A stretch of 64,000 bases of DNA from positions 95,234,001-95,298,000 of the forward strand of contig CM059432.1 in the NCBI GenBank assembly GCA_030390025.1, read 5' to 3'. Positions 11,086-53,496 of the stretch are shown piece by piece. The notes under the pieces are model-generated. The model did not search any database. It was not told the origin of the DNA and saw nothing but the letters and a program-made list of their open reading frames with translations. How positions within the stretch are numbered: the first letter of the stretch is position 1; each line of letters opens with the position of its first letter. Source of the DNA: Squalus acanthias. Its lineage: Eukaryota. The position numbers and the translations under genes are program-made.

Positions 11086-13009
11086 GGATACTTACACCAT
11101 CTATTTAATGTCGCTTAATCTGCTGAAATGTATATTGTATTGTTCTTTCTAACTCCTGCAAATATTGCTCAGTAAGATTAAACTATACCTGGATGCCTTT
11201 GTTGTATATACCCTACATAGGCTATTCTGATGTTGTATAAAGTAACCTGCATGTTCTTTACCCTCACCTCTAAATATTTCATCCTTTCTACAGCATATAC
11301 TGTGGAATTAATTTTTATTTACATAGGCTTTACTTTTCCAGTGCCAGTACTATCTGTAGGTACTCATCTTATACTGTCGGCTGCAGTTCTATAGCAGTAC
11401 CTTTAGAGCAGTATGAGCTGGCAGCACTAAATTAGGGTATTGTTATGCAGTACCACGGAAAATTATCTCGGGCCAGCATCTGTAGTGTGCAATGTGAGTT
11501 TGTCACATTCAATTTACACTCCGGCCATGCCTCAAATTGAGGTCAGCGATAAAGGGACATGGTTTACAAGCAGACGTGCAGTGATCTGCTCTCGGATAAG
11601 ATGTGTACCTGCATATAGTCTTGCTACAGGAAAATATGACCATTGTGAACAAAACCTAATTGCAGGGCATGGGCTTTTTTTCACATTGGTTTTGCGCTGG
11701 ACTGCTCCCAAATCCAAGATGTGTGAGGCTATCGAGATGGTCTCATGCCTCTTTGCTGAGCGAGCTTGGGAGTCAGATTGAAAATACTTCATATTGTTTT
11801 TGCAGTGGTAGTATAATAGCATCGCTCTACCGCTGACTTCAAACCACCCTCAAATCGGGGGAAACACGAAATTCAGCATGTGTTCTGAAACACATTGAAA
11901 GTGTTCGACTAACAGCTATCTGAATGTCAATTACATTTTTAATGTTAGTGGACAGCTTTCTGTCCTGTTGATGGTTTATTAACTTTAAAAGGCTCAGAAA
12001 TTGCTGGAGTGATGCATCTTGGGTCAAGCGCCATGAATTGGATTTTTACCTCACCCTTCAGATCGTATTATTTTTGCGCCACAAATTGTTGGAAATGCAA
12101 ATTGATAAAAGTGCGGCGACATCAACAGGGCACCTTGAGAACGTCGGGTCCAATGGTCTATCTCCTTAACCAATGAAATTTAAGGATAGAGAAAGAAACA
12201 GAGCGAATGACAGACAAGGAATAGGGTAAATTAGAGTCAAATTAGATACAGAAAGAGAAATAAAGAAAGGGAAAGAAAGATTAGATTAAGAGAGAGAGAG
12301 TAAAAAGAGACAGAAAGGAAAAGTAAGATAAAAAATATAAAATTGACATTTAAAAATCTAGGAACAAACTTGTGGGAGTGATACAATTTCATTGTTCCCT
12401 TTCTGGGCCTCCAAGGTGGAGTGGCATGTCAAGACCATAAATCATGTAATTAACAGGATCCTTATGACATGAATTACCAGCCCTAAATGTCTGTGGCGAG
12501 ATTCATTCATATTTACGGCGCAAATCTAGCAATTTCATGACACACTATGGGGAGGCTCACAGCGAGATGGTCATTTTTTTGGTTTTGGCAAGGCTAATGG
12601 CAGAATGGTGCAAATTGTCCAGTAATTTGTAGTGAATCAGAACTCATGGCTTATCTCTTCTTCACCACTAATTGCTGGGTTATTTTCCGCACAAATAAAT
12701 GCATGTGCTGTGAACGTGCCATAATTTTTTCATCAATTTCTGGGTCATTAAAACATAAATGTGGTCTATTCAGCCACCTGGAAGCTATTTAAACTTACAC
12801 TTTAAAGTATAATATGCTTGTATGCCTGTTGGTTGGGTTTTACTGTAGCCGGTGTGATGGTGAAATGGGGTGAGACTGCTTGTTGGAGGGGGCCTCACAC
12901 CTGCAGCCAAAGCCTGAACTCAAACCAACTTGGCTATGTTGGACATTCTATATTGCTGCAATGCCAAAACAGTACAACTGCTCTATAATACAAATTACAA
13001 TTACTAAAA

Positions 13010-13427
13010 AACTTTTAAAAATTGTAATTTTTATCATAATGGAGAAATTTTGACAGTCTACAATATCAAAATTAGCTTTTCAGGGCCAGAACATTTGTTT
13101 ACCAGTCAATACGCTGTTAAAACCCAGTTACACCTATTCCAACAAGGCTTAACCTTTAATGGGGTATTTAACAGCGATATTACCACAGAAAAGCCCAAGT
13201 TTTCATCAGTTTCCCTGACTTCACAGATTACACTGATTGCCGGCTATGTGTGGGGGTGGGGGGTCTACAGCATAGCCAGTATAGGAGCAGTGAATGACTG
13301 ACCACAACTTCAGGATTTCCGCGATTAGATACGCATGCGCTAAATCCTGAAGTTGCGGTCACTTTCAGAGGTTAATGACGGTGAATGCTGGTAGTTCATC
13401 GTGATTACCCACCGCAAATTCCGGGCC
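13010..13427. mobile_element. Right half of a Harbinger-type MITE (same family as 27417-34120)
   Basis: Colinear similarity to 33740-34120, ending in the same TIR ccgcaaattccgggcc. Confidence 0.8.
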
Positions 13428-19400: not shown

Positions 19401-19439
19401 GTCCCTGGGCCTCACAATTCTGCTGCCAGTAAATGAGGG

Positions 19440-19676
19440 CAAAAATGAGAAGTCGCACAACACCAGGTTATAGTCCAACAGTTTTATTTGAAATCACAAG
19501 CTTTCGGAGCTTACACCCCTTCCTCAGGTGAAGTGAGGTGAAGTGACTTCACCTGAGGAAGGGGTGTAAGCTCCGAAAGCTTGTGATTTCAAATAAAACT
19601 GTTGGACTATAACCTGGTGTTGTGCGACTTCTCATTTTTGTCCACCCCAGTCCAACACCGGCATCTCCGCATCATG
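19440..19676. mobile_element. Penelope-type mini-insertion: perfect 95-bp inverted repeat plus tail, 12-bp TSD
   Basis: 19440-19534 is the exact reverse complement of 19546-19640; agtaaatgaggg is duplicated at 19428-19439 and 19677-19688. Confidence 0.88.
19549..19586 (+). ncRNA. Minimal type I hammerhead ribozyme motif (mirror copy on - strand at 19494-19531)
   Basis: TCAC-CTGAGGA-A-GGGGT(gtaa)GCTCC-GAAA-GC-TT-GTGA: helix I TCAC/GTGA, CUGANGA and GAAA cores, palindromic AGCT helix III. Confidence 0.7.
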
Positions 19677-21177
19677 AGTAAATGAGGGGATACTGCTGTT
19701 TACAGGGCATTGGAGAAACATTCCAAGAGTTAGTTTTACACTAAGGTCTTGGAGCTAGTGTGGCAATGCAAACAGCTGCCACCATTTTTTTGGGTTATGA
19801 ATGCATACATTCCAGCAATGCACACTTCACATTACTAGCATATTCAGACCTGCCCCCAGCCATGAATGAAAGACCAGTGGGCAGAAATTTCTTTCACGTT
19901 TGAAAATTGTACATGCACTTTTTTTCTGTATTGCCAGCAGTGCTGTCGAATACATTGTCCAATATTCAAGACAAATAGAACTGATTCTATTCAATTCCGT
20001 ATTTGATTCTTTATATGCTTGTTATTAAAGAATAAGAGAATATCTTGGAAGTGTTATACATCAAGATGTCCCTATGTGCAAGCAATGCAATGATACTTTA
20101 GTGATGTGATGATATTTACAAAACAAATGACATAATCGCATTATATGTTTCTTGAAAGAAGCAAAAAACCTTCTGAATAACTTTAGAGGGAGGAGTGATA
20201 GCATAAGCTAGTGATATTAAAACTGAATCTCCCAGAGAAATATGAAGAACAAACTTCAGACTTGTAGGGGGTACATTTCCCTAATGTGCAATGAAATCAT
20301 AAAAATATCCTTTATAAACATGTCTACAGTTTTGCTAAGCATTACTAAGAAATCTTCACCATATTGTCCTAGTCTGCTGATGAAGTCATTTTATTAGAAA
20401 TTAATATTTGACCACAAAGATTTTGGACAGGATATTTTTTGTATTGTTTTTTAATTCATATTTTTTGTCCACAAAGAATTAAAAAATTCAAAATATGATT
20501 AGAATATAGTAGCTAAAAGAAGCTGAGTTTCTAATTTTCAAATGTAGTGAAAACTAATATCATGCTTTACAAAATGCACAATATGATGTGCAGTAACAAA
20601 ACTTGTGCAAGAAATTTACAAAGATTACCTACAATATAAAGCAATTAACTAAAAATGACATTATAGTGGTAACTGTAGTTGATTTGACATCATGCTTTCA
20701 GAACAGCCACAACGACTATATTCTGGTGTACTAAAGAAATATTGCAGTTATGGATTTGTCACATTTACATAAGATTTACAGGTAGTGTAAATGCATTTCT
20801 AAAATTCCAACTATGGTTCAAAATCTACAATAGCCGCACAGTATAATGCCAGAACTAGAATTATAAGGGTGCTGATGCTGTTAATTTAAGTTAAAAAGAT
20901 GTTTAGAAAGCTTTAGTTTCACCTTCATTGGTTTGTGGTAAATGTACAGATAGAGCTCCCAATGCTTCGTGGGGCGAAAGCTAGGTAGCATAGGATGGGA
21001 TTTAATAGAGCCTGTGGTAAATTGAGATGCAATCCTTGAAGAAGTTTATAAAGCAAGTTACATAATTAAGGGGTTTAGACAATGCCATAAACCATATTTA
21101 TATTCATAAAAGAGCAACAAAGGACAACTGAACAAGTAATAGAAGGTACAAATCAAATGTGAGAAAAATGGTTTTCA

Positions 21178-23283
21178 ATAAGAACATAAGAATTAGGAGC
21201 AGGAGTAGGCCATATGGCCCCTTGAGCCTGCTCCGCCATTCAATAAGATCATGGCTGATCTTTGACCTCAACTCCACTTTTCTGCCCGATCCCCATATCC
21301 CTTGATTCCCCTAGAGTCCAAAAATCTACCTATCTCAGCCTTGAATATACTCAATGACTGAGCATCCACAGCCTTTTGGGGCAGAGAATTCCAAAGATTC
21401 ACAACCCTCCTAATCTCAATCTTAAAAGGCCGACCCCTTATCCTGAGACTATGCCCCCAAGTTCTAGACTCTCAAGCCAGGGGAAACAATCTCTCAGCAT
21501 CTATCCTATCAATCCCCCTCAGAATCTTATATGTTTCAATGAAATCACCTTTCATTCTTCTACATTCCAGAGAGTATAGACCCAATCTACTCAATTTCTC
21601 CTCATAGAACAACCCTCTCATCCCAGGGATCAATCTAGTGAACCTTTGTTGCACTGCCTCTAAGGCAAGTAAATCCTTCCTCAGAAAAGAAGACCAAAAC
21701 TGTGCATAGTACTCCAGGTGTGGTCTCCCCAAAGCCCTCTACAATTGTAGCAAGACTTCCTTACTCATGTACTCCAACCCCCTTGCAATAAAGGCCAACA
21801 TGGCATTTGCCTTCCTAATTGCTTGCTGTACCTGCATGCTAACTTTCTGTGTTTCCTGTACAAGGACACCTAAATCTCTCTGAACACCAACATTTAATAG
21901 TTCTCACCATTTAAAAAATATTCTGTTTTTCTATTCTTCCTACCAAAGTGAATAACCTCACATTTCCTCACATTATACTCCATCTGCCAACTTATTGCCA
22001 GTCACTTAACCTGTTGATATCCCTTTGCAGGTTCTTTGTGTCCTCCTCACAGCTTACTTTCCCATCTAGTTTTGTATCCTCAGCAAACTTGGATACATTG
22101 CACTCGGTCCCTTCATCTAAGTCATTAATACAGATTGAAAATAGCTGAGGCCCAAGCACTGAACCTTGCGGCACCCCACTAGTTACAGCCTGCCAACCTG
22201 AAAATGACCGTTTATCCCTACTCTCTGTTTTCTGTCCATTAACCAATTCTCCATCCATGCTAATACATTACCCGTAACCCCATGAGCCCTTATCTTGTGT
22301 AACAACCTTTTATGTGGTACCTTATCGAATGCCTTTTGGAAATCCAAATATACTATATCTACTGGTTCCCCTTTATCTACCCTGCTAGTTACAGCCTCAA
22401 AAAACGCAATAAATTTGTCAAACACGATTTCCCTTTCATAAAACCATGTTGACTCTGCCTAACTATATTTTGATTTTCTAAGTGCCCTGTTACCACTTCC
22501 TTAATAATGGATTCTAGCATTTTCCTGACAACTGATGTCAGGCTAACTGGCCTGTAGTTCCCTGTTTTCTCTCTCCCTCCTTTCTTGAATAGCAGGGTTA
22601 CATTTGCTACCTTCCAATCCACTGGGACCGTTCTAGAATCCAGGGAATTTTGGAGGATCACAACCAATGCATCCATTATCTCTACAGCCACCTCTTTTAG
22701 AACCCTAAGATGTAGGCCATCAGGTCCATGGGATTTGTTGGTTTTTAGTCCCATTATTTTCTCAAGTACTTTTTCTCTACTGATATTAATTACTTTAAGT
22801 TTCTCACTCTCATTAGCCCCTTGGTTCCCCACTATTTTTGGTATGCTTTTTGTGTCTCCACTGTGAAGATGGATGCAAAATATTAGTTTAAAGTCTCTGT
22901 CATTTCCTTATTCCCCATTGTAATTTCACCTGTCTCAGCCTCTAAGGGACCAATGCTTATTTTTGCTACTCTCTTCTTTTTTACATATTTATAGAAGCTC
23001 TTACAATCTGTTTTTATATTTCTTGCTAATTTTCTCATATATTCTATTTTCTCCCTTTTTATCAATTTTTTGGTTGTCCTTTGCTGGTTTCTAAAGCTCT
23101 CCCAATCCTCAGGCTTACTGCTATTCTTTGCAACATTATAAACCTCATCTTTTAATCTAATACTATTCTCAACTTCCTTAGTTAGCTACGGATGGATCAC
23201 TTTTCCCATGAATTTTTTATTTCTCAATTGAATGTATATTTGTTGAGAATTTTGGAATATTTCTTTAAATGTTTGCCAATGCA
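21178..23283 (-). mobile_element. 5'-truncated CR1 LINE, decayed ORF2 (RT)
   Basis: Frameshifted pieces [50 protein letters not shown]; (cttatgtt)-type 3' tail at 21178-21195. Confidence 0.95.
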
Positions 23284-26212: not shown

Positions 26213-27661
26213 ACCACTACTTTTGTCCTAGCTTTCCAATTGTTCATCAGCACTCAACATGAAATCATTCACATTGCAAAACTATCATAGCATAGTCTGT
26301 GGGTAATATATTTTTCCTTCCAAGCAAGTTCCTTCACTCTGAGAATGTTAACATGTCTTATGAGCAGATATCCTGAGATATTCCTTTTTATAGATAAGGA
26401 AATAAAACAAGCAGCAAACCTCATGGTCACATCTGATGCAGTTTTTTTTCAGTTGAAGCAAACTGGTCATAAATTGTGCAACTGTGAATGATTTGTCGAG
26501 GAGCAAAGGGCACGAGTGTAGACGTGTTTACCACACTGCAGTAATGATAAAAATGAACTTTGGCCTGTACACAGTTCTAACATGAGGCATACATAAACAG
26601 GCACATAGGAGTAAGAAATCAATTTTTCAGAGCTTTATTATAGTCTGTGCTCAGCAAACATCATAGATATCTGTTGTAAACTTAATTCTACTAAACGTTT
26701 GTCTTTGTTAATTGCTTTTTTTTAAAAAAGAAAGAAGGTGGAGTGAAAAATCAATTAAGTACTATTGTTGTAAACCAAAAGCTGATAGTATGCATTGAGT
26801 TCTGGATCTGCCCTTGACCATTTGTCACTATGCAAATCTGCATCAGTCATCATTGTTGCAAAATGACTGCTCGTTTAATGTCAGTGCTTGCATATCAATT
26901 TTGTCTCCACGCAAAATCTTAATGAAAGGTACTATTCTTAGGTGCATAAATAAAAATCAGAATCTTCAAAGTATCCTGTTTGCCTTTTGTTCACATTTCC
27001 ACTTGTATCTGATTGGACTCTGATGGCTTTGCTTCTATTTGCGGTCTGTTACACATTTCCAATGCTGGAGACATGCGACACTTCAGATTTTTAGCAATTT
27101 TCACAGTTTACAAAACAGTACAAAGATAGATAAAGAATGACAAAAGAGTAACATCAGTCCCCTACAGAGGCAACTCTTACACACTCCTGGAGATGTGCAG
27201 GTATATGAATGCTTAAATCTAGAATAGGGTTGACATCTCTGGTTGGGCATATTCCTCGAGGTTTCATCACATGCCTGGATTTTGCAGTCGAGGCACAAGG
27301 CGCCAGTTGTATTAAGCGGCCTAATATCAATTTTCAACAAACATCACCTGGAAGCAAGAAGTGAGGCATCAATATGAAAATAAATACTGGAAAGGAATCC
27401 ATATAATTAAGTTATTGGCCCGGAATTTGCGGTCAGCGGCGAAGCGAAGGCATTCGCGCACTGGCCCTGAAGTACACTTCACACAAAGATCTCGTGATCC
27501 CTGTGTCGTGAACTTTGGGTTTTCCGACATTTTATTCAAATCAATGGAGCTTAGTGGGGATCCCCTTGTGCGAACTGCTGTGATGTCAGCAAGCTGTCAA
27601 AGCAGCCAATCAAAATGCAGAATTCTTACAGACAGCAAACAAGGAAGTGAGTAAACTCTTA

Positions 27662-28554
27662 GGGGTAAAAATTCACTTGGTTGCGCCTCCCGTTAGCGCC
27701 TTAAGAGGGCGCTAATGGGGCACAAAGCCGCTAACGCCCGGGTGCAGCGATGTTTGCGCCGCTCGAGAACTTAACTTGAGATTGTGCGGCGGCGCTAAAA
27801 CTTACCGCTGCGACCACCTGCGCGCGCAGATTGTGACGTCATTCCATGGTGCAACGCCCTTGTGGCGCCCCGTAGCGGAAATTGAGTGGCGCCCCCTGCC
27901 TTACCGCCTGGCGCTTCCAACGACCAGAAGACTGGAACGCTATCAATCGCTGTGGGGCTGGGGGGGGCGCTATTTAAAGGGGGCCTCTTCCTGTCTTTTA
28001 TTGTTGGTGGCATTTTTGAACTACGCATTCTGAGAGAGAGAGGGAGAGACTTCTGGAGAGATTCAACGTTGTGTGAAGGAGTTTTGGGTACTGAGCAGCA
28101 CTTTGCAGGTTCATTTTGATTTGCCATTCCTTGTATCGATTTAGCAGAGACTGTGGGAGCTGCACTCTGAGCTCTTTGCATGGTACTCTCCATTGTTCTT
28201 TCCAGCACATTTGATGTGCAAGTCTCTCCAGGCCGAGATTCAAGGCTGCAATGAACAGGATGTGGATGGAAAGCAAGATTAACCATCCCCTTTAAGAACT
28301 GGCCCGTGCCATTGTGTGTGTGTACCATTGCTGACTGACATTACATGAGCTTCGCCAGCGCTCTGAGGTAGCGCCTCACTGCTCGGCCTTTGCGCCTTAA
28401 GAGAGGTGTGCAGCGCCTGCTTTAGCGCTCCACTCACCTCCCGGGGCGGTAAAAGTGAAGTTTCCTGTCAGTGCCGATAATTAGCGCCAGGCGCTAATAT
28501 TTGCGTCCGGACGATATTTGCGCCCCAAATGGGGCGCAACCTAATTTCTACCCC
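27662..28554 (+). mobile_element. Non-autonomous Harbinger, 893 bp
   Basis: TIR ggggtaaaaatt / aatttctacccc; TTA TSD (27659-61, 28555-57); ends nearly identical to 28567-32713. Confidence 0.93.
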
Positions 28555-28875
28555 TTAAAATTCTTAGGGGTAAAAATTCACTTGGTTGCGCCTCCCGTTA
28601 GCGCCTTAAGAGGGCGCTAATGGGGCGTTAAGCCGCTAACGCCCGGGCGCAGCGCTGTTTGCGCCGCTCGAGAACTTAACTTGAGATTGTGCGGCGGCGC
28701 TAAAACTTACCGCTGCGACCACCTGCGCGCGCAGATTGTGACGTCATTCCATGGTGCAACGCCCTTGGGGCGCCCCGGAGCGTAAATTGAGTGGCGCCCC
28801 CTGCCTTACCGCCTGGCGCTTCCAACGACTGGAAGACTGGAACGTTATCAATCGGTGTGGGGCTGGGGGGGGCGC

Positions 28876-28883
28876 TATTTAAA
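28876..28883 (+). promoter_or_regulatory. Putative TATA box of the transposase gene
   Basis: TATTTAAA in a GC-rich context ~200 bp upstream of the ATG; kept at the same position in both non-autonomous relatives. Confidence 0.5.
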
Positions 28884-29078
28884 GGGGGCCTCTTCCTGTC
28901 TTTTTCTGTGGTCGACATTTATGCACCACTCATTCTGAGAGAGAGAGAGAGATTCGGAGAGAGAGAGAGAGAGACTTCTACATTGACTCAACGCTTTGTG
29001 AGGTAGTTTTGCCTAGTTCATCCTAACTTTGCTGCTACTTTCGTTGCTGTACCTCATTACTTTTCTGGCAAAGAGAAT

Positions 29079-30239
29079 ATGGGGGCTGCAATGATTGGGG
29101 GCGTCGTCCTGCTCCAGCTCAATCGGAGGATAGTGAGACGCAGACAGAGAGTGGCAATGATGGCCAGACGGAGGAGGGCCATCAGGCGCATGTACAGGAG
29201 AGCTTACCCTCCCAGGGTATATCGTGAACAGCTCTCCTACATCCATATGTCCGAGGAGCTGTGTTTGCGAAGGCTGCGATTCAGCAAGGAGGTGGTCACT
29301 GAGCTCTGCCACCTGCTGCAGCCAGATCTGCAGCCTCAGCTGAGGTCCAGGACGTCTCTGTCGGTGGCAGTGAAGGTCACAGTGGCTTTGAACTTCTACG
29401 CCACTGGCTCATTCCAAGCTGCTGTTGGGGACCTCGCCAATATCTCCCAGTTTGCGGTGCATCGCTGCATCCGGCAGGTCACCAATGCCCTCTTCAGAAG
29501 GAGACGAGACTTCATCTCTTTCCCTATGACCCCAGACAAGCAGCGTGACCGTGCTCTGGGCTTTGCGAGGGTAGCGGGCTTCCCCATGGTGCAGGGCGCC
29601 ATTGACTGCACGCATGTGGCTTTGCGTGCTCCGCGAGAGAATGCAGAGGAATTCAGGAACAGAAAGGGGTTCCATTCCTTGAATGTGCAGTTGGTCTGTG
29701 ACCACAGACAGGTGATACTCGCTGTCAATGCCCACTATCCGGGCAGCTGCCACGATGCTTTCATCCTGCGCCAGACTACTGTGGCAGAAGTTTTCGAGGC
29801 ACCGCATCAGCCAGTTGGTTGGCTTCTGGGGGACAAGGGGTACGCATTGAGCACCTGGCTGATGACACCGCTCCGTACGCCAAACACCCCTGCTGAGCTG
29901 CGGTACAATGAAAGCCATCAAGCAACCAGGAACATTATTGAGCGCACAATCGGCGTGCTGAAACAACGGTTCCGCTGTCTGGACCATTCCGGAGGAGCCC
30001 TGCAGTACTCGCCTGAGCAAGTTTCGAACTTCGTAGTCGTGTGCTGCATGTTGCACAACATGGCAATCCTCAGGACTCAGCCAATGCCACCAGGCCTTGT
30101 AGCACCACCAGAGGAGGAGGAGGAAGAGGAGGAAGAGGACGAGGACGATGATCATCAGCAGCACCAAGGCAGGAGGGCGGCCCACAATGGTCAAACTGCA
30201 AGGGCCGTCCGTCAACGACTAATAGCAAGCCGCTTCTAG
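29079..30239 (+). CDS. Harbinger DDE transposase (HARBI1-like family), 386 aa, uninterrupted
   Basis: Motifs LRRLRFSK, ALNFYATGSFQ..GD...ISQ (HTH), [68 protein letters not shown], acidic tail. Confidence 0.96.
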   Translation: MGAAMIGGVVLLQLNRRIVRRRQRVAMMARRRRAIRRMYRRAYPPRVYREQLSYIHMSEELCLRRLRFSKEVVTELCHLLQPDLQPQLRSRTSLSVAVKVTVALNFYATGSFQAAVGDLANISQFAVHRCIRQVTNALFRRRRDFISFPMTPDKQRDRALGFARVAGFPMVQGAIDCTHVALRAPRENAEEFRNRKGFHSLNVQLVCDHRQVILAVNAHYPGSCHDAFILRQTTVAEVFEAPHQPVGWLLGDKGYALSTWLMTPLRTPNTPAELRYNESHQATRNIIERTIGVLKQRFRCLDHSGGALQYSPEQVSNFVVVCCMLHNMAILRTQPMPPGLVAPPEEEEEEEEEDEDDDHQQHQGRRAAHNGQTARAVRQRLIASRF

Positions 30240-30533
30240 GGCCCCTGCCATTGCTACAAACACTAATCAACCCAGCACGCAACCCCTAAGCCGGCCAAGG
30301 CACCAATAATTCCAACCACCAGCCATGTATATTTTGAATACAGAAACTTATTTATTTTACAAACTCTGTGTGTGTCAATTCCTCATGACAAACTCATAGA
30401 AATAAACACAAAAAAACAGTCAATAACATAACTGGTTCTCACAACCTGGAGATAATGTCCAAAACACTAAACAAAAGTTGGACCATGAACCTCGGCCTTT
30501 AATAAAAAAATGACCAGCATTTTGGCACACCTC

Positions 30534-31513
30534 CTACTTTTTGCCCTTCGAGGGTGATCTCCTTCCCTTGCGCACTTCCCCCCTTCTAACCCTACTGCTC
30601 CTCCGTAATGGGACCTCAGTGGCTGCAGCAAGGCTGGTGGAAGGCTGCTGCTCGTCAGACCCTGACACTGCAGATGCCCCTGAAGGACGGCCTCGACCAC
30701 TTCTGGGCCTGGAGGGCCCGGCTGCAGACTGCACCAACTCTGCATGGGCGGCAGCAGTCTGTCCTACAGGCGGTGGCAAGTGCAGTGGAGAAGTGACAGT
30801 GTTGGCAGCAGGAATGCTGTCATCGTGAGAGAGGCCAGCAACTCCCTGCTCGCCCGACACACTGGCACTCCCACGGGGCAGCACTTCAGCATCCGGAGCA
30901 ATTTGCCGGAGAACAGATTGCTGGCCTGCTGCGGCGCGGTGACAGCCCCGGGGACATGTGCACGAACCATCGAGGTTGGCAGCAGTCTGTGCTCGCGTGG
31001 CCTCCATCTGAGTCTGTATGAGAGCAGTCAGAGGTGGGATCACGGCAGCCAGTGACTGAATTGCAGCACTAAGCGTTAGTGTGGCATCCGCCTGTGCTAC
31101 AGCGAAGTGCTCCACACTCCTTGCCAGTGACTCAATGCAATCGGGCACCCTTCCCACTGCACCCATGAGCTCAGTGTGCATGCCCACCGCCTGGGTGTTC
31201 ATTTCTGCAATCAGCCGCTCCTCCTCTGCGTCCATTGCAGTAGGAGTGTCTGGCATACTCTCCCTCTGGGGAGAAGGCCCCCGTTCTTCCCTACCACCCC
31301 CATGGCGTTGCTGCAGCCCGCTGGGTCCTGGAGCTTCACCATCATCAGCCCCTTCCCCCCTGCTCCCCTCCGGGGAAGGCGTGTTCCCAGTGTGGGCATG
31401 GGCTTCCTCGGGAGAGGGTGGCACTGATGCTCCGGCTTCCTCTTCCTCCTCAGCTGCAGCATCACTCCCAGTGGCAGCTTCAGGGCCCGTCTCCTCAGCT
31501 GGTGAATCACCAT
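30534..31513 (-). CDS. Harbinger Myb/SANT-like protein, exon 3 (acidic, coiled-coil-like, basic tail)
   Basis: Acceptor CTTTCAG; phase 1 puts it in frame with the 30534..31424 ORF; spliced CDS 237+163+980=1380 nt = 459 aa + stop. Confidence 0.85.
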
Positions 31514-31672
31514 CTGAAAGCAGGGAGGTACAAGAGTGGCTTTAGCGTGAGGACAGGGTGGCAGTAAGGGAGGAATAAGTGCAGCGAGTTAGCAAGTTGG
31601 ATTGAAAGTGTCAAAGGCTGGTATTGTGAGGGACAAGTGGAAGGACAGAGGACAAAAAGGTGATGACCTTAC

Positions 31673-31835
31673 CATTGCTGTCCACAACGGGGTCGGCATC
31701 TCCAGTGGCGACGGGACCGATCACCCGGCTTGCCACAATCCTGTGGACGCGCTCCTCCAGATCGCTGAGGGGTTGCAGCTGAAGCCGCCCTCCACCCGTC
31801 CGTTGCTGCTGTTTCCGATTATGAGCCAGCTTAGC
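31673..31835 (-). CDS. Harbinger Myb/SANT-like protein, exon 2
   Basis: Acceptor TTCTTGCAG; AKLAHNRKQQQRTGGG..LSDLEERV..; donor G|GTAAGG; 163 bp. Confidence 0.88.
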
Positions 31836-31863
31836 CTGCAAGAAAAAGGACAGCATCTGAGTA

Positions 31864-31971
31864 AATATACAGCCATGGTCTTGCCTGATGTGCCTCCCAT
31901 AGGTGAATAGCCCTTACAATATACAGCCATGGTCTTGCCTGATGTGCCTCCCATAGGTGAATAGCCCTTAC
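31864..31971. repeat. Perfect 54-bp tandem duplication in Myb gene intron 1
   Basis: aatatacagccatggtcttgcctgatgtgcctcccataggtgaatagcccttac x2. Confidence 0.95.
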
Positions 31972-32119
31972 TGTATGCAAAGTGTGGAATGTGTGTGTGT
32001 GTTTGATGAAAGGGCCATAGGTGTTGGATGAGTGTTGTGCATTGGGGTTTTAAGACCCTCTGGCCATAGAGTGAGGTTGAGATGGAGGGATGGAGAGGTA
32101 TTGAGAAAAAGCCACTCAC

Positions 32120-32356
32120 CCTGACGACCCGAGTGAGGTCGTTGAACTTTTTGCGGCATTGAGTATGGGTCCTGGGCACCATGCTCCTGGAGGAGACGCT
32201 CTGAGCCACCTCCCTCCACACTCTTCTGAACTCGCGTGGCAAAGGCCTCCTGCCACTCTCCGGGAACAGCATGCATCGTCTGCGCTCCACTGCGTCAACC
32301 AGAGCATCCAAGGCCCGCTCGGTGAAGCGATGAGCGCGTTCTCTCACCCTCTCCAT
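32120..32356 (-). CDS. Harbinger Myb/SANT-like DNA-binding protein, exon 1
   Basis: MERVRERAHRFTERALDALV..LFP..VWREVAQSVSS..PRTHTQCRKKFNDLTRVVR (79 codons); donor GTGAGT at 32119. Confidence 0.92.
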
Positions 32357-32843
32357 GCTTGGCAGCAAAATGGATTACAGGTCTCTCCAGGCTGAGATTC
32401 AAGGCTGCAATGAGCAGGGTGTGGCTGGGGAGCAAGTGGCCCCCCCCGCTTTAAGAAGTGTCCGGCGCCATTGTGTCTGTGTTCCCTCGCTAACTGGCAG
32501 CAGCTGCGCTGTGCTCGTGCGCTGAGTTAGCGCCTCACTCCTTGGCCTTTGCGCCTTAAGAGAGGTGTGCAGCGCCTACTTTAGCGCTCCACTCACCTCC
32601 CGGGGCGGTAAAAGTGAAGTTTCCTGTCAGTGCCGATAATTAGCGCCAGGCGCTAATATTTGCGTCCGGACGATATTTGCGCCCCAAATGGGGCGCGACC
32701 TAATTTCTACCCCTTAACTTTTTAAAAATGTTAGAGAGAACAAAACAAAGATTGGGGCTCGCACATGGGGACAAGGCAAATCTGAAATAAAGATGAACAA
32801 ACTGTAAAAAAAAATAGATTTTTAAAAAGCTATAAAAAAATTA

Positions 32844-33736
32844 GGGGGAAAAATTCAGTTGGTTGCGCCTTCCGTTAGCGCCTTAAGAGGGCGCTAATGG
32901 GGCGCAAAGCAGCTAGCGCCCGGGCGCAGCGATGTTTGCGCCGCTCGCGAACTTAACTAGACATTTTGCGGCGGCGCTAAACTTTATCGCCGCGATCTCC
33001 TGCGCCGGCAGATCATGACGTCACTCGAGTGCGCAACGCCCCGGTATCGCCCCGGAGCGGATATTGAGTGGCGCCCCCTGCCTTACCGCCTGACGCTAGC
33101 AACGACAGGTTGAGGGGAGTGTTCTGCAGTCATGAAGGGAAAGGGGGAGCGCTATTTAAAGGTGACCGCTTCCTGCCTTTTATTGTTGGTGTCATTTTTG
33201 AACTACGCATTCTGAGAGAGAGAGGGAGAAACTTCTGGAGAGATTCAACGTTGTGTGAAGGAGTTTTGGGTACTGAGCAGCACTTTGCAGGTTCATTTTG
33301 ATTTGCTATTCCTTGTATCGATTTAGCAGAGACTGTGGGGGCTGCACTCTGAGCTCCTTGCCTGGCACTCTCCATTGTTCTTTCCAGCACATTTGATGTG
33401 CAGGTCTCTCCAGGCCGAGATTCAAGGCTGCAATGAGCAGGATGTGGATGGAAAGCAAGATTAACCATCCCCTTTAAGAACTGGCCCGTGCCATTGTGTG
33501 TGTGTTCCATTGCTGACTGACATTACATGAGCTTCGCCAGCGCTCTGAGGTAGCGCCTCGCTCCTCGGCCTTTGCGCCTTAAGACAGGTGTGAAGCGCCT
33601 GATTTAGCGCTGCAATCACCTCCAGGGGCGATAAAAGTCAAGTTTGCAGTCGGTGGCGATAATTAGCGGCAGGCGCTAATCTTTGCGCCCGGCCGATATT
33701 TGCGCCCCAAACGGGGCGCGACTGAATTTTTCCCCC
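32844..33736 (+). mobile_element. Non-autonomous Harbinger, 893 bp (sister subfamily)
   Basis: Perfect 16-bp TIR gggggaaaaattcagt / actgaatttttccccc; TTA TSD (32841-43, 33737-39). Confidence 0.93.
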
Positions 33737-34724
33737 TTAATGTTTTATTAAAATGGACAAATTTCACACTGCACAAAATTAAAATTAGTTTTTCAGGCCC
33801 GTAACCTTTTTTTAAGCAGACAATACACTGTTAAAACCCCAGTTACACCTAATCTCCTTGGGTCTAACTTTTAGCGGGGAATTTAACAACGTAATTACTG
33901 CAGAAGAGCCGAAGTTTTCGTCAGTTTCCCTGATTTGGATGATTACACAGATTGCCGGCTCTGTGGGGGGCACAGCGCAGCCTGTTTCGGAGCTGTCAAT
34001 GACAGACCACAACTTCAGGATTTACACATGTGCCAAATCTTGAAGCTGCGGTCAGTTTCAAAGGTGGAATGACGGCGAACGCTGCCAGTTCGCCGTTATC
34101 CTGTCCGCAAATTCCGGGCCATTATGACTTTTAAAAAGGGAGAGGAACAAAGTGCTCCATGTGGCACACAGGCCCCAAAACTCCTTCACAAGGTGAGGGG
34201 AGGGGCCTGCCATGGTAAAGTCCTGTGGGGGGAATGCCAGCCACAAATAGGCCTTTGGCGGCGGGAGGAATGTGGAAAAGCTCCTTCAGCGGAATTGGGT
34301 GCGCCAGTCCCGGAAAATCCTTCATCAGTGGTGGGGGGGGGGGGGGGCGGGGAGGTGGCGGTCCCAACAAAGGGTAAAAGGGGCCCCAGCAGAGGGTAAA
34401 GGGGGCAATAAGTCCTTCAGTGGGAGGTGAGGATTTCCAGGTTTGAATGAGCAGTCAGCTCAGGGGAAGTGAGCAGGCATAAGCGGCTGATATAAGGCGC
34501 AAATGGCCCAGTGGATGAGAAAGCAAGAGAGCAGAATAAATGGCAAGCGACCGAGGTGGCTGGCTGGCTGGCAGGTGCATGTGGGGAAGGGGAAGGCGTG
34601 AATGGTGAAGGTGTTGAGCAGCTGACGCCGATAGCGGGTGGAGGGAGCAACAGAGGTGTGTAGCGGGAGAGCAGCCGACACCAATTGCAGGTCTGGAGAG
34701 TGCCTGAGCCATTCAATGCTCATT

Positions 34725-38165: not shown

Positions 38166-40246
38166 CTACTTGTGCATTATCTTCCTCTTACGCGTGCTCC
38201 TACGTGGTGCTTCCCCTGTGGCTTCAGCAGTTGTGGAGGCCCCTTGCTCACTTTCTTGCTGCTCCTGTCTCGACACCTTTGGCGGCCGTCCTCTGGGGTT
38301 GCGAACCTGTGAGGGCTCGGCAACAGTCTGCTGCTCCTGTGGCTGTGCAGGGGATGAGACGCCCATCTCCGTTGGGTGAGGACTCTGGTGGGGCTCTGAC
38401 CGAGGGCTTTGCAATGGCATGGTTGTTTGAGTGCTTGGAGAGGAGCCCCCACTTCCGTGCTGTCTGCCACCAACATCCCTCTCATGGGTCAGCCCCACTT
38501 CAGAGCTAGCAAGTGGCTTGACAGTACCTTGCTACACTTCAGGGGGGCCATGAGGACCCGTTTCTGCACTGGAAGTCCTACTCCAGAGGACTTCCATGAA
38601 GGTCTGGTTTCTATGCTCAGTAGCTGACCATCGTTCCTTAAGAGATGCCAGTCTATTCTGAACAATGACCATGTTTTCTACACTCTGGCGACTTAGCTCC
38701 TCCATGGCCGTAGCCATCCTCTCTTCTACTGTAGCCATCCTTTCCACGGAGGTTGCCATCCTTTCCGTGGTGATGTGTTCATGCGCCAATGCCTCCACAA
38801 AGGCTCTGCTCATGTTCGCGATGGACTCCTCCATTCGCTCGACACTCGCAGTGACCCTGGAGACAAAACCTGCCAGAGACTCCTGCACCTGTTCCTGGAG
38901 TTCCAGCACCGCTCTCGTTCTGGATGGACCCGGAGGCACAGGGTTGACATGCAGCTGAGCCGAGCTGGCAGAGTCCTGCGCCCTCCGACGAGGACTCTCC
39001 ACTGCTGTCCCTGTCTCCACCATCTGCTGATGCTCACTTGTGAGCTGTGATACACCAGGTGCCAACACTACTTTATCTCGTGAAGGTCCCACCGAGGTGT
39101 CAGTGTCTGCGCTGGTGCTGGGTGCACTGAATTCTGCTGAGGCTGCGCCCTCAGAGGTTACAGCTTCCTCTGAGGAGTCTGGAAGCTCAGGCTCTTCCTC
39201 CTGGACAGTGGGGACGTGGGCTTTCGATGGTCCTGTGGGGGAGTAAAGGAAAGAGTTAGAGATGTTGGATAAGCACATGGAGCACACCAGAATGATAGGG
39301 AGTAGGATAGCTTGATCTTGGTTTCGGACAATGCTCGGCACAACATCGAGGGCCGAAGGGCCTGTACTGTGCTGTACTGTTCTATGTTCTATGTTCTATG
39401 TGAGGTCAAGGTTACATGAACATTGAATAGTGCAGATGATCATAAGTCAATCTGTTAGAGCATCAGATTCATTATCAGTGACTCATGCAATGTCAATGAG
39501 AGAGATGCCAAACTATTCTGTCACCAGCTTGCTGCGATGCGCCCATCTGTCCGTCCCCCACTTGGGAATCCTCCTCGATTCCGGCAATTTCCAGGGCCGC
39601 CTCCTCTCAGGCGGTGAGCTGGGCTACTGAGGGTGGCCCTCCTCCTGTCATGGCTCTTTCCCTCTTATTGTGGGCTCTCTTTTCCTGCAATGAGGGACAC
39701 AAGTGGAGTTTGAGTGAGAATGAAGGAATGAGTGTAGATAATCCATAGCATAGATGCTTAGAAAGATACAAAGGACCATCCCTGTGTGTTGAAAGTTGTT
39801 GTTGTCATGGCATCACAGTGATAGGGAGTGTGAGGGGTGCATGGTCGAATAGTTAAGTGAATGTGACCTTCGAGAGAGAGGGAATGGGTAAGGGTGCAAG
39901 CATGTAAGTGTCAAGTGGGATGTAGAGGAAGAGGTTGGCAAAGCAGAGTGCTGGTGAGGAGAGGCGATGGGGATCAGCTTGAGGGAGATGGGAAAGTCAT
40001 ACTCACTTTTCCTGTGCGGAGAAGCTCATGAAACCTCTTCCTGCATTGCAGCCAGGTTCTGCGGCTCAGCAAAATGGAGTTGACCTCCTGGGCCACTTGC
40101 AGCCACACAGCTTTTGTCTGCTGGGGTGGCTTTTTTCTCCCTGAGGAAGGGAACAGCACCTCCTTATTACATCTGGCTCCGTGCACCAGAGCTTGGAGGG
40201 AGGGCTCATCAAACCGAGGTGCACACTTTTGCTTGATCGTGGACAT
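38166..40246 (-). pseudogene. Harbinger Myb/SANT gene, 3 exons (40246-40007, 39684-39525, 39232-38166), disrupted
   Basis: Exon 1 APRFDEPSLQALV..WLQVAQEVNS..RRTWLQCRKRFHELLR; exon 2 EKRAHNKRERAMTGGG with an in-frame TGA at 39609-39607; frameshift near 38.5-38.6 kb. Confidence 0.85.
39290..39400 (+). mobile_element. CR1-type 3' tail inserted in Myb intron 2
   Basis: gagggccgaagggcctgtactgtgctgtactg(ttctatg)3. Confidence 0.75.
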
Positions 40247-42304: not shown

Positions 42305-42997
42305 TATATACATTGTTAGTTTACTGTTAACCTGGATTTCTTTACTGCAGCAATGAACTTCTAGCTGATTATGATATCCAAAAGATGTATGCAATGAAAT
42401 TACACACTCACAACAAATTGTAATGGAATTTTCAGTGCTACATTACTGTATTTTCAAAGCCACCAAACTAGGTATGGGAAGTACTCACCTCTTTCATTGC
42501 TCATACACCTGTACCTGATGACTGTTAAGATTCTGAAATTGTTCTGAAAGTGTAACCACTCGTTAAACTCTGCATTAGTGTGCAATGAGAAACTGCGGCT
42601 ACACAAACTAAAATACGTCCAAATCTATGGCTACCATATACTGTACTGCCTTGAAAGTTAAGTTTTACTGTTCACTAATTTTATATTGCTAAAATGCGAC
42701 AGAATTACGTGATAGAAAGTTGCACCAAATATTGAAAGTCGCGCTCACATTGTGAGTGAACCCCATGGGAGCGAAATTTGGCCTTGTTGTGCCTGTTTTC
42801 TAGGTGGAAAATGGGGAAAAAGTCATCCAGTTTAGGGGTCAACCTCCCATGCCCAAACCACGTTGGAAACACGTCTGACGCCGTATTGGTTTGGGCACTG
42901 CAGGAGCATTCATGGCGGCTGCCTAAAACAGACCCTTGGGTATGCTAGAGGCTTAGCGCCTGATTTATGACCCAAACTGAAAATTGGTTTGCCCTGA

Positions 42998-43790
42998 AAG
43001 CTGCTCCTAGGAGGCCATACCCAGCACACAGGGTGTACAGGCCAAGAGTCACTTTCTTGGATCTATCAGAAACACATTGCATCAGGAGGCTGTGCTTCTC
43101 CAGGCAGGCTGTTGTAAACCTCTGCAGCCGACTGCAACAGGAACTGCTGCCTGCTGGACCAGGGTGTCACTGATGCCCTGTTCGCCAGGGCTGAACAGTA
43201 AATCACCTTCCCTATTGACCTCAACAGTCAACAGGAGTGAGCTCAGGGATTTGCAGCAATGGCTGGCTTCCCCCACGTGCAGGGCATCATTGACTGCACA
43301 CGTGTTGCCATCAACCAGATACCAGCCAGCAACATTCGTTAATTGATAAGGCTGCCACTCCATTAATATGCAGCTAGTGGCTGATCACACAAACAGGATC
43401 ATGCGAGTTTCTGCAAGGTACCCAGGTAACTGTCACGATGCATTTATCCTGTGCCAGTCTGCCAAGTAGTTGACACTCCCAGGGGGACCACCAGGATCAT
43501 TATTGAGCGCACCATTGGGATGTTGAAGCAGAGGTTCAGGTGTCTCGACAGATCTGGGGGCTCCCTACAATATACCCCACGAAGAGTCACTCGCGTTAAA
43601 GTAGTGTGCTGCATACTTCACAACTTCAGCATACAGAGGCCTGCATTTGGAGGTGGCGCAGCAGCAGCAGTCCTCATTGGATGAGGAAGACTAGGGGAAA
43701 GGCAAGGAAGCAGCAGAGGAAGGACATCCACCTCAACATCGTGCGGCAAGAGGTATGAGGGATCAGCTAGTTGCTGAGTGCTTCCACTAA
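42998..43790 (+). pseudogene. Decayed Harbinger transposase (third element)
   Basis: [88 protein letters not shown]; deletions, stops and frameshifts. Confidence 0.9.
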
Positions 43791-45631: not shown

Positions 45632-48600
45632 GATGAGGCCCAGCCATTAAAATCACACGGGCCCCACACCAATGATGTCATAGGAGCTTCCTGCACACCA
45701 CCCTGGCTGCCCGATTCACACCCCGTGTTAAAATCCACCCTTTAATGCCTACCGATTAAATTATTTTGTCCATTAGCTTAAAAGAAGTGTCAACAAAATT
45801 CCCTTTTTAAAATAACAGACAAAAGATTTTCAGACCAACACCGTAAACATTTCCATGCAAATACTCGCACAATATAATTTCATCATTGGCTTCATTCTTT
45901 GAACATTTTTAATGTTAGCACAGAGCTTAGCACAGAGCCGATTGTGCTGTTGGTTGTCAACTTTGAAATTTAGCTGCCACTGTGACACTGTTAAGCGTAG
46001 CTCTGTCTGCGCTCAGTTGCCTTGGCCAGACAGCAATGTGTAGCTGACAGTGTAATTTGGGTTTACCAGCTCAGTATTACTCTAAGCAGGTACAGTTCTC
46101 AAACTGCTACCTGTATAAAGTCCTGTGGCAGCACTTTTGCACAAATCCAAACGCTAGCAAAATAACAGTTATATCATCATGTTTATTCGCAAAGAACTAC
46201 AATGATAAATGCCGTCAGTTATTCTTCTTGAAAATTTTATTTTACATTCATGATATGACAGATAGTATACTTTCCATGTGCTGAAAATCATCAAGAATAT
46301 TTAATTCCAAAATAGTCACTGTAATACACTTTTTGTTGTAGAAGTCAGTTATTATTTGTCATAATGTTTCAAGCCAATCAATGTTTCACATGTTTGAATG
46401 TACAACAGAGCAGAATAAATGGACATTTCATTTTTAAAGCTTGCAGCACTTAATGAACAGCAGTAACAACAGTTATTAAAAGGATCTTTTTTAGGACCTC
46501 TTGAAAAAAAATTCTGTGCTTATTTTACAAAAAGAAAAAAGTTTATGAAAGAGTCCATCGACAGCAAGAGTGATATGCTGCAGATTCCAAATAATGTGTA
46601 GGAGAGAGTCAGTCTGCACAGAGCATGCAGTAAAGCATTTTTACTGCTCTAAGGGTGTAAATCATGGAAGGCAGCAAGGAGCCAGGTCTAACTTTGTTCT
46701 GAAGTTTAGAACACAAGCTGTCACGTTTATTAGGACTCATTTCAGGACACTTTAAATACTTATTTGCTTCAAACCTTATTAATTCACTTAGACTTTAGAG
46801 AGTGGTCTAATTTTGTACTGTAGTATATGTTTGTGATAATATCATACATTATCATTTAGAGCATATTAGATGCATTGAGACAGAGGCTGTACTTCAGGTC
46901 AGTATAACTTCTTGAGGTGGAATTACTCATGTTAAAGCACATAAATAATGACTGTATACATGAGTAATGGTAATGTAATAATGTGTCCTCGCCTCCACAT
47001 TTCCTTGAAAACAGTGCATCAGATTGGAATGTATAGAAATAGTAATTCAGGAGCAAATTCATCGGAACTTGGTAACAGCACCAACAAATCGATTAAACAT
47101 AATTAGCCAACAGGTTAGCACATGTGTCAGTAAATAAACAAGTTGGCTTGTTGGAAGTACTGCAGAAGATAAAAGCATGTGATCTATGGAGGATATGTTA
47201 TGTTGGTGAAATAACTCGTGAGTTTTGTTGGTGTGAGTTATTATGGTAGCCTGGAACTCCCAGCCTCTGAGGAGATATACAGCCTGTATTGTGAAAGTGC
47301 AGCTCCTGGAGCCTTTCAATTAATTCTGAGACAATGCACCCTGCTCTTGACCATTAGGTGCTATTTTATTATTTGTAAACACCTTTCTACTTAGCATTTA
47401 TCATACTAAATAAAAAGAACTAAACAAAAGATAAGGGAAAATGTAAGCACGCAGAGCTAAGACTAAAAACAGTAACAGGGACTGAGAGCCAGCAAGTATG
47501 CATCAGCTGATTTGTAAATTTAGTGCCTGGTTTGGAGTCACATCTTTTCAAATGGAAGTGTATGAATTGTGAGCTTTAGGTTTAGTTTATTGATTACAAA
47601 GGCTATTACAATTCATGATTGGGATTCAACTTGATTCATATCTGAAACAAGGGGGTACATTTTTGTCATCACCGCCTGGGCAGTAATCTGGTGGAGCAGA
47701 TTGCCCGTCAATTGTAGATGGTCTTTTCCTGCCCGTTATTTTCATATGCTCATATAGCTACAGACACAACTGCCCAGGTAGATGACGATGCTGTAGATCT
47801 TCATGTAGTCACTGGCACAGCTCCCCTGTTGGTTCATTGGTGAAACACACTCTTCTAATGCACATCTCACTAAGGTCTTCATAGGACCTGCGTTACCTGT
47901 ATATTTTTTTGGGGGGGAGGTAATATTTTGTGGGGTGCAGCCTCCTCAGATGATACCTCAGTCTCCTCCATCCTCTCCTCCATTGCAACGGCAGACAAAG
48001 GCATACCCATGAGGACCCCGTACCTCTGCTGAGACTGTTTTCACTATGTGGGAGAGGGGACAAAATATCCCAGTGGTCTTACAGTCCCACAGGCAGTCAG
48101 AAACAAGTCCAACGATATCTAGGCCCACAGCAACAAAACAAATTGCTGATAAACCTTGTTCTAAGCTGCAGTAGTTGTTGCTCAAACTTTCAGGAGTCTT
48201 CAGGCTCAAAGGCTCCTCACTTCTACCATTCTCAGATGATCTAGATAATCCTGGCAACAGGTATACCTTATGTTTCCAGTTCTAACTTACCCCATAGTAC
48301 ATTGCGAGCATCATTTCTGGAAATTCACGGTTCCAGCGCCACTGGTCCTCATTAACATATATTAAAATCAGGTGCATGGGGCCTCAGTGGGCACATCATG
48401 TGAAGGGTTACGTCACAGTTGCTCATTTGGCTGCATTGTTTTTGGGGTGGAAAATCAGTGGAAATGGTTTCTGCCCTAGTTTTCTGAACCCACCTGAATG
48501 CCCAAAAAACACTGAAAATGTTGTGAAATTTTATACGGTGAATTTGACATGTAGCTCAAGAAATTTTATCCAAAACTGAATATTCTGCGTTGACCCTGGC

Positions 48601-52048: not shown

Positions 52049-52224
52049 ACTAGCCACCCCTCACATGCACCCTCATCCGAATGCAATCATACCAACTTAC
52101 AACACACAAGGACGCCACTTGACACCCCACTCCATCATAGTCACCCTCTAAAGATCTAACCCATCCATTCCTTACACTCATTCCATTACTCTCACTCAAC
52201 CTTCTCTTCTTTCGCTCCTTGCAG

Positions 52225-53496
52225 GAAAAGAGAGCCCAAATAAGAGGGAGAGGGAGAGAACCAGAGGTGGCACTCCATCATTGGCCACTCTAACATCAGC
52301 AGAAGAGGCTGCCTTGAAGTGTCTGGAGTCGCCGAGCAGCTGGAGGTGGGAGGCAGAGAGAGGGGACATCTCAGCAACCTGGTGACAGAATTACATATCA
52401 TACAGCTACATGGCATATCGCAGTCACTCACATGGGATTGATGTCAGCAGCCAGTGAATGTTCATCATGTGCATAATGGTATCTGTACCCATTCTTCATA
52501 TAACATATCTAACTCATCTCTTTACTCTCTCACAGGTCCATCAAGAGTCCCCCGCACTGTTCAGGAGGAAGAGGAAGATGACTCATCAGAGGAGCCTCCA
52601 GCCTCTGAGTTCGCACCGTCACCAGACATAAGTGCACTTAGCACCAGCGCAGATACTTACACGTGGGTGGGTGTCATGCGAGATAGAGTAGTGCTGTCAC
52701 CTGGTGTCTCACAAGTCACAAGTGAGCAAGAGCAGATGGTGGAGACAGGGACAGCAGTGGAGACACCTCGCCGGAGGGCACAGGACACTCCGAGCTCTGC
52801 TCAGCCGCATGCAGACGCTGAGCTTCAGGGGCCATCCAGAAAGAGGGCGTTCCTGGAGGTGCAACAAGAAGTGCAGGAGGCTTTGATAGGTTTTGCGACC
52901 ATGATGTCTGCAAATGTCCAGAGAATGGAAGAGTCCATCTCCAACATGAGCACCACCGTGTCGCAGGCAATGGCGACTGTAGGCTCTTCCATGGTTAGGA
53001 TGGCCACCTGCATGGAGCAGCTAATGAGCCACTTACAGGAGCACATGGTCTCTATGGAGAATAGATGGCAGAGGCTCATAGACCTCCTCTCTAGAGGGAT
53101 GTCAACGTAGAAGTGCGTCCTCATGTGCAGCAAGGTGCTCTCCAGCTCCTGGCTAGCAGGGAAGTGCAGGTGGCCCATGAGAGGGATGATGGTGAGAGAG
53201 GACATGGAAGTGGGGGCTCCTCTCAAAGCGCTCACACTTCTCCCCCGTAGCCCCCCTCCCCCCCAGTCAGAGCCCCAGATGCTGCCTCAGATCGTGATGG
53301 CGAAGTCTGCCCCTGCACATTCACAGGGAGAGCAGACTTTGGTGGGGCCATCACAGGCTCCAAAACCCAAAGGATGTCTGCCAAAGTGTCTATGCAGTCA
53401 CAGCAGAGAAGTGAGCAGGCTGCCTCTACCTCTGCTGAAGCCACAGGGGTAGCACCTCGTAGAAGCACGCGCAAGAGAAAGATGAAACACAAGTAG
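52225..53496 (+). pseudogene. Harbinger Myb/SANT gene exons 2 (52225-52381) and 3 (52536-53496)
   Basis: EKRA.., GPSRVPRTVQEEEE..STSADT..QMVETGTAVE..RMEESISNMS, ending APRRSTRKRKMKHK*; frameshifts and an internal TAG at 53108. Confidence 0.85.

Follow-up and report, generated by a model that had tools for sequence, protein, structure and literature searches.

The locus described here raises two questions: whether a vertebrate chromosome carries a natural, structurally complete PIF/Harbinger transposon with both of its genes, and whether such a copy is a recent insertion. The locus lies in a 64,000-nucleotide stretch of a Squalus acanthias contig (CM059432.1, positions 95,234,001 to 95,298,000 of the forward strand; hereafter the window), where an initial annotation, made from the sequence alone, had recognized an apparently intact, recently mobile Harbinger element. 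We conclude that this 4.1-kb element is a structurally intact, two-protein PIF/Harbinger copy belonging to what is likely a very large family, and probably an old survivor of the expansion of that family rather than a fresh insertion. The anatomy of the element, its reading frames and one splice junction bear out the annotated natural two-gene structure with non-autonomous partners sharing its ends; the case for recent activity is weaker than annotated. Published work is cited here from excerpts of the papers. The element and its principal parts are as follows.

28567..32713, forward strand: full-length two-gene PIF/Harbinger element, 4,147 bp.
28564..28566, forward strand: left target-site duplication, TTA.
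32714..32716, forward strand: right target-site duplication, TTA.
28567..28578, forward strand: left terminal inverted repeat, identical to the right repeat at 11 of 12 bases.
32702..32713, reverse strand: right terminal inverted repeat.
28567..28904, forward strand: left end segment, 96.4% identical to a non-autonomous partner (NA1, below), CpG-rich, with three copies of GGCGCTAA and a TATA-like word at 28876.
29079..30239, forward strand: transposase open reading frame (ORF), 386 amino acids (aa), matching PF13359 (DDE_Tnp_4) with E 2.6e-39.

The element is bounded as annotated, with TTA on both flanks and with 11 of the 12 outermost bases matching between the two ends. The terminal repeats are imperfect, their similarity decays further inward, and at 12 bp they are shorter than the 25–50 bp given as usual for PIF/Harbinger elements (PMC9179366). 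Inside these boundaries the transposase gene and a Myb-like gene are convergent; each end has a TATA-like word, and polyadenylation words on both strands lie between the genes. The word GGCGCTAA occurs six times across the two ends and is absent from the genes (at most two copies in 500 base shuffles), and its repeats are likely candidates for the binding sites of the Myb-like protein. The cis signals that were checked, both frames and both ends are all intact. The locus therefore shows the set of features expected of PIF/Harbinger: a DDE transposase, a Myb/SANT gene, terminal repeats, a 3-bp target-site duplication (TTA in all three elements considered below) and an extended target preference (three sites). 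The CpG dinucleotides, described earlier as largely retained, are indeed retained in the ends (observed/expected 1.09 and 0.78) but not in the genes, where the ratio is 0.50 against 0.44 in the remaining window. CpG retention is thus a feature of the ends and is near background within the genes, and we dropped it as a marker of age.

The transposase frame is uninterrupted, as had been claimed, with its PF13359 match and with acidic residues D176, D252 and E288, which we take to be the catalytic DDE triad, in place. In a set of 60 relatives of at least 330 aa, drawn from 120 listed homologues, each of these three is the most frequent residue at its position (49, 48 and 32 relatives, respectively), and the transposase keeps the majority residue at all 68 columns conserved at 85% or more. 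A structure model built from a 56-row alignment (pLDDT 90.5) has DDE transposases as its top fold matches, namely piggyBac (Z 9.7, root-mean-square deviation 5.3, 229 residues aligned), Tn5 (Z 9.0) and ISCth4 (Z 8.6), and predicts a DDE/RNase H-like fold. A Foldseek search with the model gave no match at E 0.001 or better, and a search by transposase sequence gave no relative of solved structure (best E 0.037). Eleven named shark or ray species account for 112 of the 120 listed homologues, the best of which is 66% identical and the best two 61–66%, examples being P0001 and P0002 of Pristiophorus japonicus; the exact sequence is absent from a collection 15 billion strong. This predominance of shark and ray relatives points to a cartilaginous fish as the likely host. 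Because the best of the 120 homologues is only 66% identical, the family is, as judged by protein identity, distinct from the annotated chondrichthyan families. The chondrichthyan transposases filed as ‘putative nuclease HARBI1’ belong to the same clade and to other families.

The Myb/SANT gene lies on the reverse strand and had been annotated as a 459-aa frame opened by two canonical introns.

32120..32356, reverse strand: exon 1, encoding the Myb/SANT domain (PF13873, E 1.6e-9).
31836..32119, reverse strand: intron 1, 284 bp with GT-AG borders, containing a perfect tandem duplication of 54 bp (31864–31971).
31673..31835, reverse strand: exon 2.
31514..31672, reverse strand: intron 2, 159 bp, GT-AG, with a spliced join in one contig of sequencing run X17.
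30534..31513, reverse strand: exon 3, low in complexity, encoding a basic C-terminus and without a Pfam match.

Among eight GT-AG donor/acceptor combinations near the claimed junctions, only 32120/31835 together with 31673/31513 yields a long frame, and that frame encodes the predicted 459 aa. The spliced protein aligns with P0007 without a gap across the intron-1 junction (50 of 112 residues identical) and is colinear with P0121 too; a search for longer Myb relatives gave one match among 148 candidates. An upstream ATG at 32471 was set aside as the start of the gene, as it lies outside the TATA-like word at 32455.

Expression was approached through sequencing runs, which were compared, over a stretch that excluded NA1 and the left flank, with the element as assembled contigs, not raw reads; the contig evidence listed comprises 15 of 120 joints, 24 of 1,237 loose ends and 40 of 283 variant rows, with 33 variant rows inside the element. 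For run X17 (organism A) and run X19 (organism B) the status as RNA is guessed, there being four RNA-like runs in all and none recorded as RNA. One X17 contig diverges from the element at position 31514; the 11 letters beyond this point have a single match in the window, at 31674 on the border of exon 2, and the loose end is read as the spliced join of intron 2. Of the two junctions predicted earlier, 31673/31513 is thus present in one contig of a presumed RNA run, and 32120/31835 is supported by the homology to P0007, with no intron-1 join among the joints and loose ends listed. Unspliced contigs run through the donor of intron 1 in both X17 and X19, and through the acceptor of intron 2 in X19. 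In both runs the long exon-1 contigs have eight base differences each from the large element and so derive from other copies; transcription and splicing of the family are likely, the source of these contigs being a copy other than this one. Seven listed differences within 35 bases of exon 1 (32261–32295) are common to the long X17 and X19 contigs, and three or four of the seven have a low frequency in DNA run X2, a hint that a single minority subfamily or copy predominates in the probable RNA runs. The uncommon His at position 64 of the Myb protein is not among the differences listed for the X17 exon-1 contig and is therefore likely family-wide.

The large element does not stand alone. Two shorter elements flank it, and all three sit inside an older one.

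27662..28554, forward strand: NA1, a mosaic non-autonomous partner of 893 bp, flanked by a TTA duplication of its own.
32844..33736, forward strand: NA2, a second non-autonomous partner of 893 bp, likewise flanked by its own TTA duplication; its 16-bp terminal repeats are perfect.
27417..34120, no strand assigned: older host element, 762 bp after removal of the three inserts; its target duplication is ATT and its 16-bp terminal repeats are perfect.

A neighbouring copy with near-identical ends had been noted before; NA2, the mosaic structure of NA1 and the shared target sites in the older element had not. The near-identity holds for the ends of NA1, which match the large element at 96.4% over the left 338 bp (12 differences) and at 98.8% over the right 170 bp (168/170). 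It does not extend to the interior, which is 78–80% like the large element, and NA1 is therefore not a simple deletion product of it. By contrast, the interior of NA1 is 96.9% identical to NA2, while its ends match those of NA2 at 83.1% (left 338 bp) and 87.1% (right 170 bp); the ends of NA2 are likewise 83–87% identical to those of the large element. NA1 is a sharp mosaic, with ends of the large-element type and an interior of the NA2 type. That NA1, and not one of the pure types, is the recombinant is the simplest assumption, since the two pure types differ to a similar degree (13–22%) in ends and interiors, although three sequences leave the direction of exchange unfixed. The mosaic likely arose when the interior of a non-autonomous element of a sister subfamily acquired ends of the large-element subfamily by recombination or template switching, the product then spreading as a family of its own. 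NA1 would be the better-matched substrate of the large-element proteins, and NA2 a substrate of the sister subfamily.

Traces of the mosaic also appear in other runs. Specifically, the left switch point of NA1, at 28904, is the deepest listed joint in X2 and coincides with a loose end in X19 (organism B) too; the seven listed NA1-type bases are carried by an X8 contig flanked by other sequence. As the breakpoint and the NA1-type bases recur in X2, X19 and X8, NA1 is likely a dispersed recombinant family. This recurrence bears on a purely local origin, in which NA1 was assembled on the spot, by local hopping or double-strand-break repair, out of NA2 and the adjoining large element. Such an origin would fit the position of NA1 only 12 bp from the large element, the single orientation common to all three elements and a mosaic composed of exactly the two flanking types; it is nonetheless highly improbable, in that NA1 is about 3% divergent from both neighbours in the shared parts, its breakpoint and diagnostic bases appear in other runs, including the X8 contig with its other flank, and each element has its own TTA duplication at a preferred target.

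That preference can be read from the host element, which is likely a Harbinger-type miniature inverted-repeat transposable element (MITE) of another family. All three elements are inserted within it at AAA-nnn-TTA-nnn-TT sites (AAACTC-TTA-AAATTC, AAATTC-TTA-ACTTTT and AAAAAA-TTA-ATGTTT). The AAA...TT pattern is present at 3/3 insertion sites, compared with 16 of the 2,483 TWA sites in the rest of the window. Of the 40 TWA sites that the host element contains, the three used for insertion score best. The A/T-rich middle of the older MITE would offer three good targets within about 140 bp, and this target preference, together with a high copy number, would explain the cluster without local hopping.

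Empty sites are found as well. A paralogue of the right half of the host element, at 12983–13427 (74% identical, with the same 16-bp terminal repeat), spans the NA2 site without an insert; the left half of this paralogue was not found nearby. Furthermore, joints in X2, X17 and X19 skip NA2, and a loose end of X17 at 32715 spans the large-element site, as a paralogous empty site would.

The large element is contained in 20 of 24 listed runs (12 studies; eight organism labels and one unlabelled), and in 19 of the 24 at least half of its sampled words are present. In X2, at least 81,646 contig pieces were placed, with a median summed depth of 6.7e5 across 17 inner bins, compared with 16 for the last bin of the flank; overlapping short contigs can overcount up to 31-fold, and this depth, which gives an order of magnitude and not a copy number, suggests a family of roughly 1,300 to 42,000 copies. 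Loose ends at the element termini show other flanks in X17, X8 and X19. These data decide the question posed by the database names of the relatives, nearly all of which, where named, are annotated ‘putative nuclease HARBI1’, as if the two genes were domesticated host genes of the HARBI1/NAIF1 type. Domesticated genes would not be expected to show terminal repeats, a target duplication and very high depth; with other flanks elsewhere and paralogous empty sites, which refute it, domestication is scarcely credible. In X8, depth is low over all element types and zero over the last two flank bins. This pattern fits a low-copy relative or trace DNA equally, and horizontal transfer to organism C is therefore not claimed.

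Within this family the copy in the window is atypical at several positions. Its base is the minority in 22 of the 33 variant rows listed inside the element and accounts for at most 5% in four. These near-private bases are at 28783, 28830, 30835 and 31140, the last two of which alter the Myb protein (G360, D258); the two variant rows in the transposase are silent or exchange Val for Leu. Five X8 contigs show 11 differences from the large element in 2,018 bases, a comparison that omits one contig (14 differences in 205 bases) as another subfamily, and none of the contigs listed spans the whole element; contigs from so abundant a family do not resolve the individual locus. In the epaulette shark the mutation rate is 7e-10 per site per generation (interval 1.4–14.1e-10, PMC10587355). 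At this rate, borrowed from another species, four private changes in 4.1 kb would imply about a million generations, and near-private changes in a slowly mutating lineage make an old insertion likely. The earlier claim of recent activity is weakened on three counts: CpG in the genes is near background, the family occurs under eight organism labels, and the copy departs from at least 95% of the depth at four of 33 rows.

A recent insertion from a still-active minority subfamily, with Harbinger transposition ongoing and NA1-type elements as its current substrates, is the main competing explanation, and we consider it unlikely. The frames are open with no loss at the 68 conserved columns, the intron-2 join comes from a probable RNA run, the right end of NA1 is identical at 168 of 170 bases, and many variants are at intermediate frequency, as expected of subfamilies. 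On the other hand, the four near-private substitutions among the rows listed include two that alter the Myb protein, the left 338 bp carries 12 differences from NA1, the family and the NA1 breakpoint are common to organisms A and B, and the long exon-1 contigs of X17 and X19, with their eight differences each, represent other copies. Several points also weigh against the view of the element as an old survivor. A young copy would account more readily for intact frames, ends and cis signals. Most of the 22 minority bases are common to 15–45% of the depth and so mark subfamilies, not age, and a small active subfamily could have given rise to the copy recently. In addition, the evidence is drawn from the listed shares of variant rows, joints and loose ends given above, the mutation rate has a tenfold interval and comes from another species, and the target pattern was picked after the three sites had been seen (n=3), though it matches published Harbinger3_DR flanks. 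With these points counted, an intact old survivor remains the explanation that we favour.

An intact two-protein copy of this kind would be expected to work as follows. If the element works like Harbinger3_DR and Ping/Pong, its spliced Myb-like protein would attach to the termini, likely at the repeated GGCGCTAA words, and would carry the transposase into the nucleus and to the element ends. The DDE transposase would then excise the element and insert it at TWA within a loose AAA-nnn-TWA-nnn-TTT palindrome, creating the 3-bp duplication, and both proteins of the large element, acting in trans, may mobilise the 893-bp partners. That the family is active today and that its native proteins function in cells is doubtful. 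The same holds for the more ambitious joint reading, in which the family still jumps, its native proteins work unreconstructed in vertebrate cells on a 15-bp A/T-rich target and end-swapping sustains non-autonomous lineages; we regard it as a rather long shot. If it were true, the element would serve as a natural Harbinger tool that favours A/T-rich targets of 15 bp, and non-autonomous lineages would outlast subfamily turnover by taking on the ends of the dominant autonomous subfamily, as NA1 records.

Other repeats in the window include further Harbinger remains. A decayed, frameshifted transposase at 42991–43639 (forward strand; 42–69% identity in pieces) and a Myb exon-1 remnant at 40016–40246 (reverse strand; 42%) belong to another Harbinger family; no terminal repeat pair of at least 10 bases was found around these two remnants. 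Harbinger transposase remnants are also at 53870–54816 and 47791–47913 (both reverse strand), one frameshifted at 49–51% identity and one short with stops. A near-perfect palindrome at 19437–19643 has two 98-bp arms, 99% complementary, and a spacer of 11 bases. Long inverted dispersed copies of 72–83% identity (21175–23282 with 49933–52033, and 38166–39762 with 52147–53496) are presumably retrotransposon fragments.

The findings leave the understanding of the Harbinger mechanism unchanged. A literature search that covered few subscription papers and neither Repbase nor Dfam gave no published description of the large-element family, nor any assay in which a native vertebrate Harbinger was used. 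The rarity of intact vertebrate Harbingers implied by the initial annotation is at odds with PMC8437027, which reports 269 potentially intact Harbinger-Snek copies in Laticauda colubrina and, for L. laticaudata, RNA reads covering each of the two genes. Intact, transcribed vertebrate Harbingers have already been published, and the large element is an ordinary member of a high-copy family and a fair candidate for an assay. What it adds is threefold. The element and its 112 relatives from 11 species show that the Harbinger superfamily is common in sharks and rays, filling a gap stated in PMC9179366, which in the part cited reports the elephant shark to be without Harbinger and calls for a check of other cartilaginous fish. 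The end swap in NA1 gives a clean example from nature of subfamilies recombining, and the same source describes teleost Harbingers as transcribed and judges recombination between their sublineages rare. Finally, the locus supplies a native Harbinger protein pair with two natural donor types, whereas the vertebrate Harbinger described as assayed in the work cited was a reconstruction (PMC3016246, PMC2836001).

Among known systems, the sea krait Harbinger-Snek resembles the present family in its very large expansion, in having two-gene copies that are intact alongside short non-autonomous derivatives, and in its RNA evidence; the part of the paper cited describes no mobility assay (PMC8437027). 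It differs in its origin by horizontal transfer, whereas the relatives found here across 11 shark and ray species fit a long residence, and end-swapped partners such as NA1 are not described for it in the part of that paper cited. LatiHarb1, which makes up 9.3% of the coelacanth genome (PMC3787270) and whose expression has been reported (PMC3787270, PMC9179366), is likewise a high-copy Harbinger of a slowly evolving vertebrate, in another host lineage; the likeness is one of description. The Ping/Pong/mPing system of rice shares the two-protein requirement, the short substrates and a target preference reaching past the 3-bp duplication (PMC2836001, PMC9921582). Unlike the elements described here, it is an active plant system, and mPing-type MITEs measure 100–500 bp, compared with partners of 893 bp, one of them mosaic. 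In Harbinger transposition, the Myb-like protein contacts both the element ends and the transposase, which it carries into the nucleus (PMC2836001, PMC9179366), and both proteins are needed for transposition of Harbinger3N_DR and mPing (PMC2836001). A close parallel in its features is Harbinger3_DR of zebrafish with its partner Harbinger3N_DR (PMC3016246, PMC2836001), which shares a transposase with a Myb-like gene, a non-autonomous partner, a 3-bp duplication and a palindromic target with outer AAA/TTT (AAACACCWGGTCTTT), and from which the present element differs in its TTA core, in place of CWG, and in native frames that are open without reconstruction.

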